Source: Pseudomonadota bacterium (GTDB lineage Bacteria; Pseudomonadota; Gammaproteobacteria; UBA12402). Taken from it: a stretch of 64,000 bases of DNA. Below are positions 37,394 through 61,705 of this stretch, piece by piece. The number at the start of each line of letters is the position of its first letter. Position 1 is the stretch's first letter. The stretch lies in assembly GCA_039190005.1 (NCBI GenBank), contig JBCCYM010000003.1, positions 7,715 to 71,714 on the forward strand, read 5' to 3'. The notes below the pieces were generated by a model. The model saw only the letters and a list, made by a program, of their open reading frames with translations. It was not told the DNA's origin and made no database searches. A program made the translations under genes and the position numbers.

Positions 37394-37648
37394 GTGGATT
37401 CCCACACCTTGCCCGCCATTCCTGCACCCCTTCGACAAGCTCAGGGACCGCAGGCTCAGGAACCACGCTTCGTCATGCTCAGGATAAAATCCAGGAGAAA
37501 AATGTGTATGGGTGTGGTTTTAATGTAGCAAGACATATATACACAAACTACCATACTGCTCTCAACAATATCGAGCGTATTGTCGAAAGAAAAAATCTCT
37601 ATGCCTATAGTTTGTTCCCTGGATTCCCGCTTTCGCGGGAATGACGTA
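37394..37648. repeat. Composite roughly 255-bp element: degenerate family A left end, two family B units, internal sequence, family A right end
   Basis: GGATTCCCACAC...CCCCTTCGACAAGCTCAGGGACCGCAGGCTCAGGAACC ... AATCCAGGAGAAAAATGT ... TTCCCTGGATTCCCGCTTTCGCGGGAATGACG; fills the lapA-rpsA intergenic space. Confidence 0.55.
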
Positions 37649-37654
37649 GGGAGA

Positions 37655-39337
37655 TCAGTTCTGCTTTTCTTCTTCTTTAGCTTGTAACAGATCGCCAAGC
37701 GTTGCTTTACCAGCGGCACTCGCGTTTTTACTGATTTCTTTAAGGATTTTCGCGTCAGCCTGCTCAATCGCTTTAATTGAGAGCTGCACTTCTCGGTTAC
37801 GATAATCAAAACCAACAATCTTAGCTTCAATCTCATTACCCACAGCAAATTGCTTAGACAAATCACTTACTTTCTTAGATGATACATCTTCAGCACGCAT
37901 GGTCGCGTGAATATTATCCTCTAAATCGATTTTCAGCACTTTACTTTCAACCGCGGTAATCTTACCTTTGACCAAACTACCTTTATCATGCGCTTGCGTA
38001 TAATCGGTAAATGGGTCTTGATGCAACTGTTTAATACCCAAAGAAATGCGTTCTTGCTCCGCTTCTATCGCTAAAATGACAACCTCGATTTCTTCATTTT
38101 TCTTAAGCTGTCGCATTTTTTTATCCGCTTCAGCCAAATCCCAAGCGACATCAGAACGATGAATTAAACCATCAATACTGCCTTCCAAACCAATGAACAC
38201 ACCAAAATCAGTAATTGATTTGACCACACCATTAAGCTTCTCGCCTTTTTTATGACTGTCGGCAAATTGGGTCCACGGGTTCTCAGAACACTGTTTAATC
38301 CCCAGCGATATACGATGACGATCTTCATCAACTTCAAGCACCATGACTTCAAGTTCTTGATCCAATGACACCAGTTTACTCGGTTGGGCGTTTTTGTTCG
38401 ACCAATCCATTTCTGACATATGTACCAAACCTTCAATACCTTCTTTGAGCTCAATGAAACAACCATAGTCAGTCACATTGGTAACTCGCCCTTTGACGCG
38501 ACTACCTACCGGATAGCTCTCTTTCACACCTTTCCAAGGATCACCGGTAAGTTGTTTAATGCCAAGAGAAACACGATTTTTATCACGATCAATTTTTAAA
38601 ACGGATACTTTAATTTTTTGGTCTTTGTCAATGATATCACTAGGATGTTTAATTCGTCGCCAAGACATGTCCGTAATATGCAATAGACCATCAATACCGC
38701 CCAAATCAATGAAGGCGCCATAATCGGTAAGATTTTTGACAGTACCTTCAACTTCATCCCCTTCTTTGAGGTTTTCCAACAAGTTTGAACGCTCTTCAGA
38801 AATACTCGCTTCTAATACAGCGCGACGCGACAACACAATATTATTGCGTTTGCTATCCATTTTGATTATTTTTAATTCAAATTCTTTATGCTCAAATTCA
38901 CCGGGATCGCGTATTGGTCGCACATCCGCCAAAGAACCGGGTAGAAAACCTTTTAATCCCATGACTTCAACCATAAACCCACCTTTTACTCGAGTGGTGA
39001 CATAACCGTTCACATTGGTTTCAGTATCATAGAGCTCCTGTAGCTCACGCCACGATTCGGCGCGTTTGGCCTTATCACGCGATAAACGTGTTTCACCATA
39101 GCCATCTTCAATCATGTCTAAAGCGACATCAACCTCATCACCGACATTGACTTCTAATTCACCTTTAGCGTTCTCAAACTGTTCACGAGGAATAATACCC
39201 TCAGATTTTAAGCCGGCATTGACAATCACATAATCCTTATCAATTCGGATCACTGTCCCTCTTATAATTGTACCCGGTCTTAAGATTTCATTAGCAAAAC
39301 TTTGTTCTAAAAGTTCGGCAAAATTTTCATTCATCAT
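37655..39337 (-). CDS. rpsA: 30S ribosomal protein S1
   Basis: 560 aa; six S1 domains; N-terminus matches E. coli S1. Confidence 0.95.
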   Translation of the reverse strand: MMNENFAELLEQSFANEILRPGTIIRGTVIRIDKDYVIVNAGLKSEGIIPREQFENAKGELEVNVGDEVDVALDMIEDGYGETRLSRDKAKRAESWRELQELYDTETNVNGYVTTRVKGGFMVEVMGLKGFLPGSLADVRPIRDPGEFEHKEFELKIIKMDSKRNNIVLSRRAVLEASISEERSNLLENLKEGDEVEGTVKNLTDYGAFIDLGGIDGLLHITDMSWRRIKHPSDIIDKDQKIKVSVLKIDRDKNRVSLGIKQLTGDPWKGVKESYPVGSRVKGRVTNVTDYGCFIELKEGIEGLVHMSEMDWSNKNAQPSKLVSLDQELEVMVLEVDEDRHRISLGIKQCSENPWTQFADSHKKGEKLNGVVKSITDFGVFIGLEGSIDGLIHRSDVAWDLAEADKKMRQLKKNEEIEVVILAIEAEQERISLGIKQLHQDPFTDYTQAHDKGSLVKGKITAVESKVLKIDLEDNIHATMRAEDVSSKKVSDLSKQFAVGNEIEAKIVGFDYRNREVQLSIKAIEQADAKILKEISKNASAAGKATLGDLLQAKEEEKQN

Positions 39338-42917: not shown

Positions 42918-44588
42918 ATGAAATATCAATATTTTTTAGGCATTATTATGGCCACCCTAATTTTTCCACTTACGGTATACAGTACTGTAAATTCCCAATC
43001 AAGCCAAACGGTGATTCCTAGCCTGGATAAAACTATTATTGCTCCAGGTGGCACCACTACAATGACTTTCACAATCACAGGAAACAATAGTGGCGGCACT
43101 ATTAACATTTCAAGCGGCGTTAATTTTACACTGACTACTTCTACCACTAGCACTGTAAATGCAATACTCCAATCATCTGCTTGCACCACAGAAAACCATA
43201 CTGTGACTATACCAAGTGGTTTAGATAGTTGCGCTGTTGATGCGACAGTTTCTGATTCCACTTCCGATGGTACTTATAAATTTAGTTTTTCATCAAGTGA
43301 TTTTACCTTTCCATTAGTCGATAGTTTAACTTTTTCAGTAAGCGGATTGGGTTGGAAACAAATTGCGGTAGGCTATGATAGCACTTGTGGTATAGCAACA
43401 AACGGGAAAACCTATTGTTGGGGCAGTAATCTTCAGGGACAGTTAGGTATTAATAACAATGATAACACTTACCAAAGCACCATACCTGTTGCGGTGGATA
43501 CCGACGTTGAATTTGTACAAATTTCTTCCGGTTTTGGTATCAATTGCGGCGTGACCGCAGATTATGCCGCCTATTGTTGGGGAGCCAACAATTCTGGCGC
43601 GCTCGGAACAGGCAGCATAGGTGGCAATAGCGCTGTCCCCGCACAAGTAACCGGCGGACACAGCTTTAAGCAAATCTCTGTCGGTTATAAATCCACTTGT
43701 GCTGTAACAACGGATAACTATGCCTATTGTTGGGGCAGTAATCTTCAAGGACAGTTGGGTAATACGTCTTATGGTTCATCATCATTAGCAAGTACTGGCA
43801 CACCAGCACAAGTCCTTGATGAAGAAGGAAATCCAATCAGCCTTGCACAAATCTCTATGGGACAATTTTCTGCCTGTGGATTGAATGCTAGTGGTGAGGC
43901 ATATTGTTGGGGGGCTAATAACTTTGGTCAACTTGGTATTGGCAACATAAACGGTGATAGCAATGTAACCTGTACAGAAGAGAAGAATAATAATCAATCA
44001 GTAGAAGTAAGCTGTTTTCCCTATGCTAAGCCTGTTACTACCAATCAAGATGGTGTCGCACTCAACTTTAATAATATAAAAGTGGGGCATCAAACTGCCT
44101 GTGGTGTCGCAAAAACTGATGGTGAAACCTATTGCTGGGGTGATAATGAATATGGGCAACTAGGTAATGGAGAAAGCGGCGCAACTGCTTACAAAAAACA
44201 ACCAACTGCTGTTGAAGGCGGGCAAAAATTCTTAACTGTTTCTGCCGGACATTTAACAACTTGTGCAATTAATACGAATAAAAAAGCGTATTGTTGGGGT
44301 GCTAATGCTGCTGGACAGTTAGGCATTGACACTTACACTGATCCATCACAAGTTTCAACACCCACAGCGGTACAGCATGTTGAGTTATTTAATTCCATTT
44401 TTGAAGGCAGTTATTACACCACCTGTGGTGTTGCTAAAACAGGCCAAGGCTATTGTTGGGGCAGAAATAATGAAGGTCAATTAGGCATTGGTTCAAACGC
44501 CACCGGTGCAACCTGTATTATTGACACTCAGGGTACAACAGGCTTATGTGAAATGTTACCAACTTTAGTTGAAACACCAGCTTCTTAA
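42918..44588 (+). CDS. Secreted RCC1-repeat (beta-propeller) protein with Ser/Thr-rich N-terminal module
   Basis: Signal peptide; at least 7 repeats of the pattern YCWGxNxxGQLG; N-terminal module resembles those of the 1180-aa lipoprotein. Confidence 0.8.
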   Translation: MKYQYFLGIIMATLIFPLTVYSTVNSQSSQTVIPSLDKTIIAPGGTTTMTFTITGNNSGGTINISSGVNFTLTTSTTSTVNAILQSSACTTENHTVTIPSGLDSCAVDATVSDSTSDGTYKFSFSSSDFTFPLVDSLTFSVSGLGWKQIAVGYDSTCGIATNGKTYCWGSNLQGQLGINNNDNTYQSTIPVAVDTDVEFVQISSGFGINCGVTADYAAYCWGANNSGALGTGSIGGNSAVPAQVTGGHSFKQISVGYKSTCAVTTDNYAYCWGSNLQGQLGNTSYGSSSLASTGTPAQVLDEEGNPISLAQISMGQFSACGLNASGEAYCWGANNFGQLGIGNINGDSNVTCTEEKNNNQSVEVSCFPYAKPVTTNQDGVALNFNNIKVGHQTACGVAKTDGETYCWGDNEYGQLGNGESGATAYKKQPTAVEGGQKFLTVSAGHLTTCAINTNKKAYCWGANAAGQLGIDTYTDPSQVSTPTAVQHVELFNSIFEGSYYTTCGVAKTGQGYCWGRNNEGQLGIGSNATGATCIIDTQGTTGLCEMLPTLVETPAS

Positions 44589-51376: not shown

Positions 51377-51463
51377 GCCGGAGTGGCGGAATTGGTAGAC
51401 GCGCCGGATTCAAAATCCGGTGATGGCAACATCGTGTCGGTTCGAGTCCGACCTTCGGTACCA
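51377..51463 (+). tRNA. tRNA-Leu (CAA)
   Basis: 87 nt; anticodon stem-loop CCGGA-TTCAAAA-TCCGG; long variable arm; T-arm GTCGG/CCGAC; CCA end encoded. Confidence 0.9.
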
Positions 51464-55511: not shown

Positions 55512-55740
55512 TTTCCTTGCTCCTTTTTCTTATTTTTCGCAATGCTATTAGTGTACTCTTATAAAAAAAATAAAGCAAATGGGCTAAACCTAACAAATTT
55601 TCTATGGGACACTCACGGGACACTTGCAGATAAAAAACAGCGATTATCTACAATTGGTGACCACAATGAAAATCATATAATATTATGATTTTATTACAAT
55701 TATTGATTGTCAATTATTGCCGCTATTAGTATAATTTCAG

Positions 55741-55796
55741 ATTCAAAATCCGGTGATGGCAACATCGTGTCGGTTCGAGTCCGACCTTCGGTACCA
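55741..55796 (+). repeat. Duplicate of the 3' 56 nt of tRNA-Leu (putative attR)
   Basis: Identical to 51408-51463. Confidence 0.8.
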
Positions 55797-55806
55797 AAAT
55801 TATAGA

Positions 55807-55903
55807 ATAATAATTAATCAACTTGAAAGCAGAACATGTATGTTGGTAGGCACGATTGGGATTGAACCAACGACCCCCACCATGTCAAGGTGATGCTCTA
55901 CCA
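55807..55903. repeat. 97-bp direct repeat copy 1, containing the 3' 60 nt of tRNA-Val on the minus strand plus 37 bp of flank
   Basis: 96/97 identity with 56591-56687; tRNA-Val fragment at 55844-55903. Confidence 0.8.
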
Positions 55904-56165: not shown

Positions 56166-56594
56166 ATGCACTACCCAGTTGTGATTCATAAAGATAAAGA
56201 AAGTGATTTTGGCGTCATCGTTCCAGATCTTGCGGGCTGTTTTTCTGCTGGTGACACCTATGAAGAAGCGCTTACCAACGCGGTAGAGGCAATTGAGTGC
56301 CACCTGGAAGGTTTATTGCGCGATAATCAAACCATCCCTGTCGCCAAAGAAATTGATAACTACATTCATAAACGTGAATACGCAGGAGGTATATGGGCTT
56401 TAGTTGAAATCAACATTAGCCAATTATCCGGTAAAGCTAAGCGAATTAATATTACTTTACCCGAACGACTATTGCGCCTGATTGATCTTCATGCAAAAAA
56501 TCTTGCTCATAAGAACCGGTCCGCATTTATTGCTGATGCGACATTAGCTTATATGTCTCAAGATAACTACCAACACAACACCAGAGAGAGATAA
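56166..56594 (+). CDS. hicB: Type II antitoxin HicB with C-terminal RHH DNA-binding domain
   Basis: 142 aa; N-terminal HicB fold motif (HYPVVIHKDKESDFGVIVPDLAGCFSAGDTYEEAL); C-terminal RINITLPERLLRLID ribbon-helix-helix. Confidence 0.85.
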   Translation: MHYPVVIHKDKESDFGVIVPDLAGCFSAGDTYEEALTNAVEAIECHLEGLLRDNQTIPVAKEIDNYIHKREYAGGIWALVEINISQLSGKAKRINITLPERLLRLIDLHAKNLAHKNRSAFIADATLAYMSQDNYQHNTRER

Positions 56595-56687
56595 TAATTA
56601 GTCAACTTGAAAGCAGAACATGTATGTTGGTAGGCACGATTGGGATTGAACCAACGACCCCCACCATGTCAAGGTGATGCTCTACCA
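56591..56687. repeat. 97-bp direct repeat copy 2, overlapping the 3' 60 nt of the intact tRNA-Val
   Basis: See copy 1. Confidence 0.8.
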
Positions 56688-58813: not shown

Positions 58814-58903
58814 GATAGTTTATAGTCATAGTTTTATCTTGATTGTTAATTATAAACTGTTATGATAAGGATATAAACATGTATTTAAGCTGTCATTCCA
58901 GCT

Positions 58904-59040
58904 TCTCCTCCGTCATTCCCGCGCAGGCGGGAATCCAGGAGAAAAATGTTTATGCCTGTGGTTTGTTCGCTGGATTCCCGCCTGCGCGGGAATGACGAGG
59001 AAAAGATGCGGGAATGACGGGGAAGAGATGCGGGAATGAC
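58904..59040. repeat. Family A full 85-bp element followed by three tandem roughly 22-bp partial copies of its end (GATGCGGGAATGACGRGGWA)
   Basis: Seen directly; lies in the divergent uvrB/aminotransferase promoter region, ending 33 bp before the aminotransferase ATG. Confidence 0.65.
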
Positions 59041-59072
59041 GAGGTAATATCAAATTATTAAGGTTACACACC

Positions 59073-60295: not shown

Positions 60296-61474
60296 ATGAA
60301 AATAACCCAAGCTGAAATCTTTGATATTCATTCCCCTAAAACTACCGTATTGAATCCTGTTTTTGTGCGATTACATACCGATGAAGGCATTACCGGTGTC
60401 GGTGAAGCTGGTCTGGCTTACGATTTAGGTCACAGCGCCGCGGCAGCGATGATTAAAGAATTTGCCGAAGCGATACTACCAAACGCCGATCCATTTCAAA
60501 CTGAACAAATCTGGTCACGCATGTTTCGTGAGAGCTTTTGGGCGCTTGGTGGTGGTCCAGTGGTCTACGCAGCAATGAGCGCCATTGATACCGCGTTATG
60601 GGATATCAAAGGTAAAGCGCTAGGTTTACCCGTTTATCAATTACTCGGCGGCAAATGTCATGACAAACTGAGAACATACGCCAGCCAGCTTCAATTTGGC
60701 TGGGATAAAGCATTCAAGGAACTCAATAATCCAGCGGATTACGCTAAAGCGGCCGAAAAAGCGATGGCGGAAGGTTATGATTGTGTCAAAGTTGATCCGA
60801 TAATGTATGACGCACAAGGCAACACCCTGTTTGACTGCACCAAATTATTCACTACCCCGGAAATACGTTTAATTCGTCAACGGATGCGGGCCATTCGTGA
60901 TACCATCGGCGATGACAACGATATTATTCTTGAATGCCATAGTTTATTAGGCGTGACTTCAGCGATACAATTGGGTGAAGTTGCTGAAGAATTTCGCTGT
61001 ATGTATTATGAAGAACCGGTGAATTACTTAAATTCAGCGCTGCATAAAAAAGTAGCGGATAAAGTCAATGTACCCATCGCCGCCGGAGAACGATTATACT
61101 TGCGACATGGCATTCGCCAATATCTGGAAGATCAAAGTGTCGATATTTTGCAGCCGGATATCGGCTTATGCGGCGGTTTCACCGAAGCCAAAAAAGTCTG
61201 TGACTATGCCGATATGTATGATGTCAGCGTTCAAGCGCATGTCTGTGGTGGACCAGTAGCTACAGCAGCCGCCTTACATCTTGAAAGCGCTATCCCCAAT
61301 TTTATCATTCATGAACACCATACTTACGCGATTAAAGATTGGAACAGAGAATTGTGCCAACAAGATCTACAACCCGTTAATGGCTATTTCCAGGCACCCG
61401 ATCGTCCTGGCTTAGGTATTGAACTCAATGATGCCATCGTTAAACAATCACCGATGGTGAGTATTAAATTGTAA
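60296..61474 (+). CDS. Enolase-superfamily enzyme, mandelate racemase/muconate-lactonizing family (D-galactonate or mannonate dehydratase-like)
   Basis: 392 aa; N-terminal capping domain and barrel with metal ligands (D...E...D pattern: KVDP, ECHS, EEP). Confidence 0.8.
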   Translation: MKITQAEIFDIHSPKTTVLNPVFVRLHTDEGITGVGEAGLAYDLGHSAAAAMIKEFAEAILPNADPFQTEQIWSRMFRESFWALGGGPVVYAAMSAIDTALWDIKGKALGLPVYQLLGGKCHDKLRTYASQLQFGWDKAFKELNNPADYAKAAEKAMAEGYDCVKVDPIMYDAQGNTLFDCTKLFTTPEIRLIRQRMRAIRDTIGDDNDIILECHSLLGVTSAIQLGEVAEEFRCMYYEEPVNYLNSALHKKVADKVNVPIAAGERLYLRHGIRQYLEDQSVDILQPDIGLCGGFTEAKKVCDYADMYDVSVQAHVCGGPVATAAALHLESAIPNFIIHEHHTYAIKDWNRELCQQDLQPVNGYFQAPDRPGLGIELNDAIVKQSPMVSIKL

Positions 61475-61502
61475 TAATGTGACTATTGGAATCTAACAAA
61501 TC

Positions 61503-61560
61503 CGTCATTCCCGCGAAGGTGGTCCCTGAGCTTGTCGAAGGGTCGAAGGGCGGGAATCCA
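61503..61560. repeat. Family A palindrome with family B unit inserted precisely in its 8-bp spacer
   Basis: GTCATTCCCGCGAAGG | TGGTCCCTGAGCTTGTCGAAGGGTCGAAGG | GCGGGAATCCAG. Confidence 0.6.
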
Positions 61561-61705
61561 GTTAGTTCAAGCCCAATTATTTTAAATAATGGACACTGCT
61601 TGAAATAGTAAAATAATTCAGATTGCAACAGTCTCTGAATGGAAAGATCATCTACGTTTCGCGATGACAAAAGAAGATTATGATTCGTTTACTTCATGAG
61701 GAAAA

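Follow-up and report, generated by a model that had tools for sequence, protein, structure and literature searches.

A family B repeat in the loop of a Neisseria Transformation Sequence hairpin of an uncultured gammaproteobacterium: evidence pointing to a hybrid of two repeat systems linked by small GIY-YIG nucleases

Introduction

When a unit of one short repeat family is found precisely within the palindrome of another, the question arises whether the inner unit was moved to a chosen target or came to lie there by some other route. This question is posed by a stretch of 64,000 nt from an uncultured gammaproteobacterium (contig JBCCYM010000003.1 of assembly GCA_039190005.1, positions 7,715 to 71,714), referred to as a whole as the window, in which a unit of one family (family B) occupies the loop of a hairpin formed by another (family A) at 61503..61561 on the plus strand. 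The preliminary description of the window, made from its letters alone, had reported the arrangement at two clean loci and a degenerate third, and had read it as repeated insertion by a structure- or sequence-specific mechanism resembling that of IS200/IS605 elements or of the tyrosine transposases (RAYT) that accompany repetitive extragenic palindromes (REP), rather than as random decay. The analysis presented here identifies family A as a known nuclease target and places family B beside the genes of a sister nuclease clade. We lean, if only modestly, towards the reading that the locus is a hybrid single-stranded DNA (ssDNA) hairpin of two related repeat systems, and that small GIY-YIG nucleases are the link between them.

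It was in 2025 that the Ssn nucleases were presented as the first endonucleases to cut ssDNA at specific sites, and a single motif class, NTS/SRM, was described for them (Nat Commun 2025, PMC11893778). That paper gives the Neisseria Transformation Sequence (NTS) as a 28-nt sequence, CGTCATTCCCGCGMAVGCGGGAATCYRG, that contains dRS3, and SsnA as a 94-amino-acid, single-domain GIY-YIG enzyme that binds the NTS exclusively in ssDNA form, cutting just upstream of it. The Ssn family is defined there by the CDD entry cd10448. Homologues of ssnA are found together with NTS-like motifs (SRM) in many phyla, often in the order repeat-gene-repeat. Cleavage by SsnA does not depend on the identity of the NTS loop nucleotides, and the enzyme still cuts when the loop is removed, when non-complementary tails are added or when the stem is lengthened by complementary extension (PMC11893778).

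The two repeat families

Family A belongs to the NTS/SRM repeats, by sequence as well as by fold. Six copies in the window fit the NTS 28-mer with at most one mismatch, five of them perfectly, and the same six fit the published degenerate SRM pattern, whose matches in shuffled sequence average 0.21. Perfect ATTCCC-N8-GGGAAT palindromes number 7 against 0.16 expected, and one uninterrupted NTS (21765-21800) folds as single-strand DNA with an energy of -9 kcal/mol (z = -4.75).

At the core of family B is an apical segment of 13 nt, TGAGCYTGTCGAA, which is conserved and which a short helix of variable sequence closes. Among 202 B cores, three or more complementary pairs form this closure in 92%, as against 49% when the flanks are re-paired at random, and the closing pairs vary (CCC/GGG, GGC/GCC, TGG/CCA and others); B is thus a hairpin with a conserved apex and a covarying stem. 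It is widely distributed: an exact scan for the 18-mer CCTGAGCYTGTCGAAGGG, with one genome per species, placed it on at least 119 contigs from many phyla, those among the matches listed being Chloroflexota, Cyanobacteria, Actinomycetota, Bacteroidota, groups of the Candidate Phyla Radiation (CPR), Acidobacteriota, sphingomonads, a Coxiellaceae metagenome-assembled genome (MAG) and others. No B variant matches the published SRM pattern on either strand, and B would be a distinct motif class. Searching the literature with the B core as a DNA string returned chance matches only, and PMC11893778 was the only paper to turn up when follow-ups on Ssn or repeats linked to GIY-YIG genes were sought.

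Within the window the 22-nt B unit has 11 matches, with none expected from shuffles. B units also stand in tandem with a period of 23 nt, twice at 7058..7102 (plus strand), twice at 591..635 (minus strand) and four times at 21198..21298 (minus strand); this period equals the length of the insert at 23286 described below. Units of B nested within B occur at 21849..21890 (minus strand) and, as a palindromic pair consisting of CCTGAGC-TTGCTTG-CCCTGAGCTTGTCGAAGGG-TCGAAGG and its inverted copy, at 12476..12607 (no strand assigned), where the fold reaches -50.8 kcal/mol (z = -9.6).

Certain peptides recur across translations of B (PELVEG, LSLSKG, PFDKLR, PSTSSG and LRQAQG; L106, L007, L062, L083 and others), and called genes that run over B have spurious ends, for example the C-termini of the GIY-YIG open reading frames (ORFs) in L214 and L118. 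The B core also accounts for a kind of spurious ORF that is very common in annotated MAGs. Inverted pairs of B flanking a cargo gene were considered and rejected, as only housekeeping genes lie between such pairs (L106, L071, L007) and the small ORFs over B are spurious.

A GIY-YIG nuclease clade flanked by family B

A strict regular expression for GIY-YIG proteins retrieved nothing from the first 120 loci and proved too strict; tblastn with a GIY-YIG consensus then found five small GIY-YIG genes in loci that had been chosen by a B-containing DNA pattern. All five have B cores within 100 nt on both sides, and the flanking cores account for two of the only three in 7.7 kb at L214, both of two at L178 and all four at L096. 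To control for the bias of this selection, homologues of one B-linked protein were collected (964 matches) and seven loci were taken by protein identity. In each of the seven, B cores lie on both sides of the gene or overlap its annotated ends. Within 150 nt of the genes 18 cores occur in 4.2 kb, compared with 10 in the other 53.9 kb, an enrichment of about 23-fold, and in five of the seven loci the upstream core lies 29-37 nt before the start codon. Taking both selections together, B flanks the GIY-YIG gene in 12 of 12 loci.

The B-linked proteins are single-domain proteins of 92-95 amino acids that match the Pfam GIY-YIG domain PF01541 with E-values of 1e-13 to 1e-20 and match no NCBIfam model; the closest solved structures are those of UPF0213 proteins (1zg2, 1ywl). 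For comparison, the other common type of small GIY-YIG protein was searched with a consensus (YYVYILAS..NGTLYIGVTNDL..), which gave at least 8000 matches. In two control loci of this type, from a Rhodocyclales MAG and a Melioribacteraceae genome, the gene is flanked by NTS/SRM, at a distance of 10 nt from the ATG upstream and of 7 nt from the stop codon downstream, with no B cores. A B-linked protein and a protein of the NTS-flanked clade share 36% identity (E 1e-15). Two paralogous nuclease clades are therefore each found between copies of their own hairpin repeat. As B flanks a clade that is sister to the NTS-flanked one, it is probably the recognition (cognate) repeat of a second Ssn-like nuclease.

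If B is the site of the second clade, the Ssn family would hold at least two widespread cognate pairs with different recognition logic, the NTS presenting a conserved stem and 5' flank and B a conserved apical segment on a variable stem. Such a pair, which offers a testable enzyme and substrate, bears on the aim of collecting orthogonal ssDNA cutters as set out in the Ssn paper (PMC11893778).

Two loci of the B-linked clade showed further features. In a Nitrospirae MAG (L252, 3860-3975) about eight tandem 15-nt units, GAAGCTTGTCGAAGG, which are right halves of B only, lie upstream of the B-linked gene. At L251 (3956-4324) the genes on either side of the B-flanked gene are for polymerases, one Y-family-like (PF00817) and one of dnaE2 type, with a lexA-like gene upstream, so that it lies inside an SOS mutagenesis cassette.

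The composite hairpin and the element that carries it

The composite at 61503..61561 is made up, by the cut of the preliminary description, of the left half of family A, CGTCATTCCCGCGAAGG (61503-61519), an insert, TGGTCCCTGAGCTTGTCGAAGGGTCGAAGG (61520-61549), and the right half, GCGGGAATCCAG (61550-61561), the B core inside it being TGAGCTTGTCGAA (61527-61539). The string that had been quoted for 61503-61560 is indeed present, lying one base further to the right, and with the same cut the halves rejoin to a palindrome with a 9-nt spacer and not to ATTCCC-N8-GGGAAT. Alignment with an empty paralogue on the minus strand, the intact NTS CGTCATTCCCGCGAAAGCGGGAATCCAG at 21769..21796, gives an insert of 31 nt, the removal of which leaves a perfect 28-nt NTS; this length includes an extra 8-nt duplication, TCGAAGGG. 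CGAAGG both directly precedes the insert and ends it, forming a direct repeat, and for that reason the junction is ambiguous by 6 nt. In the minimum-energy fold of single-strand DNA (61498-61565) the composite retains an 8-bp A stem.

A second composite lies on the minus strand at 23286..23336 and consists of CTGGATTCCCGC, a 23-nt B insert (core 23300-23312) and the far half CCTTCATGGGGATGACG, in the same order and orientation as at 61503. GAAGG here directly precedes the insert and also ends it, so that across the two loci the junctions are resolved to no better than 5-6 nt, and the insert carries the prefix GGTC of the local free B units. This second locus had been called clean; the arrangement is present, but decay of the far half has left 3 mismatches (ATCCCCAT against ATTCCCGC), and no A stem (23278-23345) forms in the single-strand DNA fold. 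At the third locus, 37394-37480, which had been put forward as a degenerate version of the same arrangement, the order of left half, B and right half is absent. The sequence there (37394..37500, minus strand) is a mosaic: it has a single B unit (core 37431-37443) and, about 23 nt from it, a single A-like half, GTGGGAATCC (37396-37405), along with B halves that are nested and a degenerate NTS that belongs to an adjacent inverted-NTS element.

The two filled loci and the empty one are copies of a single unit, element E, resembling a miniature inverted-repeat transposable element (MITE) of about 150 nt. It has imperfect terminal inverted repeats (of the type GACTGTTGCAATCTG / CAGATTGCAACAGTC), a first hairpin TTTCAAGC..GCTTGAA and a central NTS. 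Alignment and comparison of flanks define three copies in the window, one empty (21725..21840, plus strand) and two filled (23235..23385, plus strand, and 61470..61650, minus strand and aligned as the reverse complement). The 23 and 31 extra bases of the filled copies are found at an identical point of the loop and in identical orientation. A sister relationship of the two filled copies, as against the empty one, was considered and dropped, as identity among the flanks of all three is about 76-87% and singles out no clear pair. Being copies of one element, the two filled loci are not independent insertions, and the window by itself supports only about one event; the repeated insertion that had been proposed for it is thus not borne out. 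In the first hairpin loop (TTCAAGC..GCTTGAA) of the 61470-61650 copy lies a near-palindromic 20-nt insert, CCAATTATTTTAAATAATGG (61574-61593), absent from the other two copies, another case of a hairpin within a hairpin loop.

Composite hairpins in metagenomes

A metagenome scan for a B core followed within 12 nt by GCGGGAAT found at least 120 contigs, with 123 matches listed. A left half was scored where ATTCCCGC occurred, with at most one mismatch, within 70 nt upstream. In 83 of the 123 listed matches B lies between the NTS stem halves ATTCCCGC and GCGGGAAT, and the other 40 are mostly B copies whose own stem ends in GAGCGG and is followed by GAAT. With at least 83 metagenome cases, the occurrence of a B unit in the loop of a hairpin-forming family A palindrome, as noted for the window, is confirmed and is not due to chance.

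The 83 listed composites fall into 24 architectures of spacing and orientation, with both orientations represented; eight of these have two or more members, each with its own range of G+C. One class, CTGG-ATTCCCGC-TC-B-GC-GCGGGAAT-GAC, with 23 copies among the matches listed, carries B antisense to the NTS sense strand at 60-71% G+C. Another, family III (GTC-ATTCCCGC-GMACCTGTC-B-AA-GCGGGAAT-CCA), with 12 copies among the matches listed, carries B in the sense orientation, as in the window, at 41-52% G+C. The flanks critical for SsnA are kept in the listed composites, as CGTC...CCAG or GTC...CCA. Seventeen listed copies have an extra 6-bp hairpin between the left half of A and B. In the alignment of this class (A2, comprising L129, L135, L143, L161, L164, L175, L187, L189, L192, L198, L209, L219, L223, L230, L237 and L238) compensatory changes occur at five of the six pairs, pairing is 99%, and the NTS stem and B core are nearly invariant. 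This family has the appearance of a conserved three-way junction, with loops that are mostly G-N-A triloops.

The spacing of the window copies (a left spacing of 11 nt and a right one of 0 or 8 nt), together with the sequence GAAGG-W-GGTCC-B, occurs in none of the 83 listed composites, which argues that the chimera of the window arose in its own lineage.

Nesting extends to other hosts and other cargo. A common junction, GAGCYTG/C.../TCGAA (slashes marking the joins), recurs in the B-in-B nests of several phyla (L038, L044, L074, L105) and in those of the window (12476-12607, 21849-21890). Twice in L083, a Coxiellaceae MAG (1320-1365 and 7058-7103), a B core lies inside a different hairpin, GTCATCCTGAGC/CCTGAGCTTGTCGAAGGG/CGAAGGATC. 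The host hairpin of that MAG, of the type GTCATYCTGAGCG.AGCGAAGRATC, is a widespread motif whose CTGAG...CGAAG skeleton is also that of B. Beside an ssnA-like gene of Melioribacteraceae (L256, 2742-2787 and 3330-3375) the NTS carries a 21-nt loop insert of another sequence, GTGTCATTCCCGTGTAAATCTACCTGTCGGCAGACAAGCGGGAATCCAG, so that the cargo of NTS loops is not limited to B.

Origin of the composite

Under the reading that we modestly favour, that of a hybrid between two nuclease-linked repeat systems, the chimera would have formed where the two hairpin families share short homologies, by recombination between them or by template switching. CGAAGG, which is present in NTS copies with a GAAG loop and in the 3' arm of every B unit, may have served here, and in other classes CCGC/GCGG, present in NTS stems and in long B stems (CCGCTCAYCC..GGRTGAGCGG). 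One 23-nt period of B would have been copied in, with 8 nt duplicated later at 61503. The loop would be the site at which such events survive, as SsnA reads the stem and 5' flank and ignores the loop; given this tolerance, B in the loop should leave the NTS functional, and B in the stem or 5' flank would destroy it. The position may then reflect both the location of the homology and the survival of the product, after which the chimera would have multiplied as part of element E, with both nucleases presumably encoded by the genome outside the window. The loop tolerance of SsnA described in PMC11893778, the microhomology at the junction and the identity of the insert with the period of the B arrays offer a simpler explanation of the loop position than targeting does. 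The natural hybrids show the NTS loop to be a cargo position in vivo and provide a handle on how tiny repeats multiply, a problem unsolved for NTS, REP and small dispersed repeat (SDR) elements alike.

Several points weigh against this reading. The metagenome sample was chosen by a pattern that already requires B beside GCGGGAAT, and in an unselected sample none of 141 B copies lies between A halves, so that the chimera is rare among B copies overall, a minority form that occurs where both families coexist. The B stem is only 4 bp in the window and B arrays fold no better than shuffles (z = 0.14), a comparison uninformative for the B hairpin because its proposed tandem G.A pairs lie outside the nearest-neighbour model. 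The 61503 composite, too, folds no better than shuffles under standard DNA parameters (z = -1.14), and the decay of the 23286 copy argues against current function there. The window holds both kinds of repeat and neither nuclease gene: no GIY-YIG gene of either clade was found in its 64 kb with a motif regular expression, tblastn with the NTS-type consensus or a hidden Markov model (HMM) of the B clade. A literature search found no reported enzyme activity on B. The route by which the chimera formed is one that we infer; the direct repeat of 5-6 nt may just as well mark a duplicated target or a favoured place of insertion, and as junctions without CGAAGG occur in other architectures, one microhomology cannot explain them all.

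The alternative that survives best, although we consider it unlikely, is targeted transposition, in which B would be a 23-nt non-autonomous element moved into hairpin loops, or to the 3' side of CGAAGG, by an ssDNA enzyme acting in trans. This enzyme could be a Y1 HUH transposase, of IS200/IS605 or RAYT kind, or else the GIY-YIG nuclease itself. The breadth of the metagenome composites, with at least 83 loop cases in 24 spacings and both orientations, speaks for such an activity, as does the presence of B in the loops of other hairpins (the B-in-B nests and the L083 hairpin). The length of the NTS insert is that of one unit, and a CGAAGG precedes it as it does the tandem arrays; a precedent exists in the precise insertion of cyanobacterial SDR5 into the highly iterated palindrome HIP1, as described in PMC4390886. 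Against it, the nested composites such as TGAGCCTGCGCCGTCCTGAGCYTGTCGAAGGGTCGAA are conserved whole across phyla, which fits the spread of a unit and not repeated insertion, and within the window about one event is all that the evidence supports. Elements of the IS200/IS605 type do not duplicate their target, require left and right ends that are distinct, and go in beside hairpins, not into their loops. In agreement with the preliminary description, which had seen no candidate transposase in the window, no transposase (Y1 or other), integrase or GIY-YIG gene was found among 30 window ORFs scanned with Pfam, nor any GIY-YIG gene with the HMM of the B-linked nuclease, and no transposase was seen next to B in the loci examined. 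The gene that travels with B encodes a GIY-YIG nuclease, not a Y1 enzyme. Family A being the motif bound by the GIY-YIG enzyme SsnA (PMC11893778) and B flanking a sister GIY-YIG clade in all twelve loci, the evidence points elsewhere than to the analogy with IS200/IS605 or RAYT, and within the targeted-insertion explanation a GIY-YIG nuclease is the better candidate than a Y1 transposase. What stands of the mechanism first proposed is that the position of B is non-random and related to structure; repeated insertion within the window and the agency of Y1 transposases are not supported.

A bolder form of this idea, which we regard as quite doubtful, combines it with the nuclease pairing. B and NTS would be the recognition hairpins of two paralogous GIY-YIG nucleases and the 23-nt B a minimal mobile element, the nuclease nicking ssDNA at or near hairpins and repair copying B into their loops. 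If true, this would account for the tandem arrays, the Russian-doll nests of B in B and the NTS::B hybrids, and the hybrids might be sites read by both enzymes. B would then rank with the smallest known units of mobile DNA, and would be the first, intron and intein homing apart, to owe its movement to a GIY-YIG enzyme.

Rather improbable, in our judgement, is the absence of any local event, an old, horizontally spreading NTS::B composite having entered the genome ready-made so that the two loci are simply two copies of it. Composites are common in metagenomes and form discrete families, one of which (family III, 41-52% G+C) shares its orientation with the window copies, and both window copies lie in one MITE-like element. 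However, the spacing and sequence of the window copies match none of the 83 listed composites, the GGTC prefix and 23-nt period of the insert are those of the free B units of this genome, and at 21769 element E is also present without an insert.

That the composites are transcribed as a structured RNA (small RNA, ribozyme or terminator), the NTS stem being the closing helix and B an apical domain, appears very improbable. The third helix of one composite family, with its compensatory changes at five of six pairs and 99% pairing, and the conserved B apex closed by a covarying helix would suit such an RNA, but covariation is equally expected for an ssDNA hairpin. Moreover, the loops of the covarying composite helix are mostly G-N-A trinucleotides, which we take to be a DNA mini-hairpin motif. 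Rfam at gathering threshold found only three tRNAs in the window, and nothing on the composites or B at E-values up to 1 in five loci that bear them; A and B occur in both orientations relative to neighbouring genes, and SsnA does not bind RNA (PMC11893778). A hammerhead or other ribozyme in CUGAGC...CGAAG was considered and rejected, as the hammerhead core is absent by inspection and Rfam found nothing; a Twister-sister match (E 0.37, below gathering score) lies elsewhere in L164 and not on the composite.

Chance adjacency of two abundant intergenic repeats, followed by decay, is scarcely credible, for although one copy has decayed, the third claimed locus is a disordered mosaic and a model placing about 10 B loci at random in the 12.2 kb outside long ORFs leaves a single event at P of about 0.06 (0.057 for at least one B in an A spacer, 0.0015 for at least two), it is opposed by the at least 83 nested cases in discrete architectures with the SsnA-critical flanks kept, and by inserts of exact unit length in the same orientation at the same point.

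Other features of the window

Besides the copies in element E, the window carries NTS repeats in a second composite unit, element F, in which two inverted NTS surround a conserved 31-nt spacer (9702-9799, 58911-59008 and 37477-37657). The inverted pair of perfect NTS at 9702..9788 (no strand assigned; 31-nt spacer) forms one long hairpin with a fold of -46.7 kcal/mol (z = -15). The second element F, with its NTS pair at 58911-58938 and 58970-58997, lies within 58892..59051 (no strand assigned) together with left-half units of the NTS at a 22-nt period. The third is interrupted at about 37521-37605, where some 90 nt unrelated to it intervene; its right end is an intact NTS (37619..37646, minus strand), and its left NTS is replaced by CGTCATGCTCAGGATAAAATCCAGG, which includes the left half of B. 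A symmetrical dRS3-type palindrome, GTCATTCCCGCGTAGGCGGGAATGAC, without the 3' flank of the NTS, occurs at 3741..3766 (no strand assigned). Left halves of the NTS (GTCATTCCCGC plus about 11 nt) recur with the 22-nt period beside intact NTS at 58986-59051, 3720-3751 and 58892-58922, these half-site arrays being on the side on which SsnA reportedly cuts.

The G+C content of the window is about 41%, and its next relatives show 62-65% amino-acid identity, with one named Legionellaceae match at 62%. A 556-amino-acid protein encoded at 42918-44588 has six RCC1 repeats, which are the source of the DNA-level repeats D1 and D4; proteins with RCC1 repeats are typically found in bacteria that associate with eukaryotes, Legionellales among them. 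The last 57 nt of tRNA-Leu(CAA) (51377-51463) are exactly repeated 4.3 kb downstream (55740-55796). The stretch between, with a G+C of 0.33 (52-56 kb), holds genes for a Rap1a-like immunity protein, an MFS transporter and a LuxR-type regulator and looks like a tRNA-integrated island; no integrase was found. A 97-nt direct repeat, 99% identical (55807-55903 and 56591-56687), takes in the 3' portion of the minus-strand tRNA-Val(GAC) and brackets a HicB-like antitoxin gene (56166-56591) with a small ORF upstream, which has the look of a second small tRNA-associated insertion.

Comparison with known systems

The neisserial intergenic mosaic elements (NIMEs) consist of 50-150 bp repeat units flanked by copies of dRS3, palindromes of this type bounding short repeats in mosaic arrays. 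Elements E and F resemble NIMEs and Correia-type MITEs in being small composite units built around the NTS; in the present case, however, the second repeat lies inside the palindrome's own loop. With REPs, the bacterial interspersed mosaic elements (BIMEs) and RAYTs, the present system shares short intergenic hairpin repeats, mosaic clusters, a gene flanked by its own repeats and an enzyme acting on ssDNA hairpins, but the enzyme here is of the GIY-YIG and not the HUH/Y1 type, no Y1 gene having been found among the 30 window ORFs scanned. We know of no report of REPs inside each other's loops.

Elhai et al., in Genome Res in 2008, are said to have described cyanobacterial SDR1-8 as units of 21-27 nt, of which SDR1 and SDR4 nest within themselves; these are reportedly confined to one cyanobacterial subgroup, with RNA-mediated movement proposed. 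The precise placement of SDR5 in the short palindrome HIP1, stated in PMC4390886, is the closest parallel for the nesting reported here. The sequences are unrelated, however, and B differs in occurring in many phyla and in its link to a DNA nuclease gene.

The nearest likeness is to NTS and SsnA (PMC11893778). Family A fits the 28-nt NTS in six copies and is likewise hairpin-forming, intergenic and clustered, and the repeat-nuclease-repeat order of ssnA is seen in the NTS-flanked clade and, with B, in the sister clade. The host is an uncultured gammaproteobacterium and not Neisseria, and in the portion of PMC11893778 drawn on only artificial extensions are found to be tolerated, with no natural NTS carrying a second repeat in its loop. 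B itself falls outside the SRM pattern. The protein partnered with it shares only 36% identity with the NTS-flanked clade and has UPF0213 proteins as its nearest solved structures. B works like the SRM, as a widespread hairpin in a repeat-nuclease-repeat arrangement, but differs from it in motif and in partner clade.

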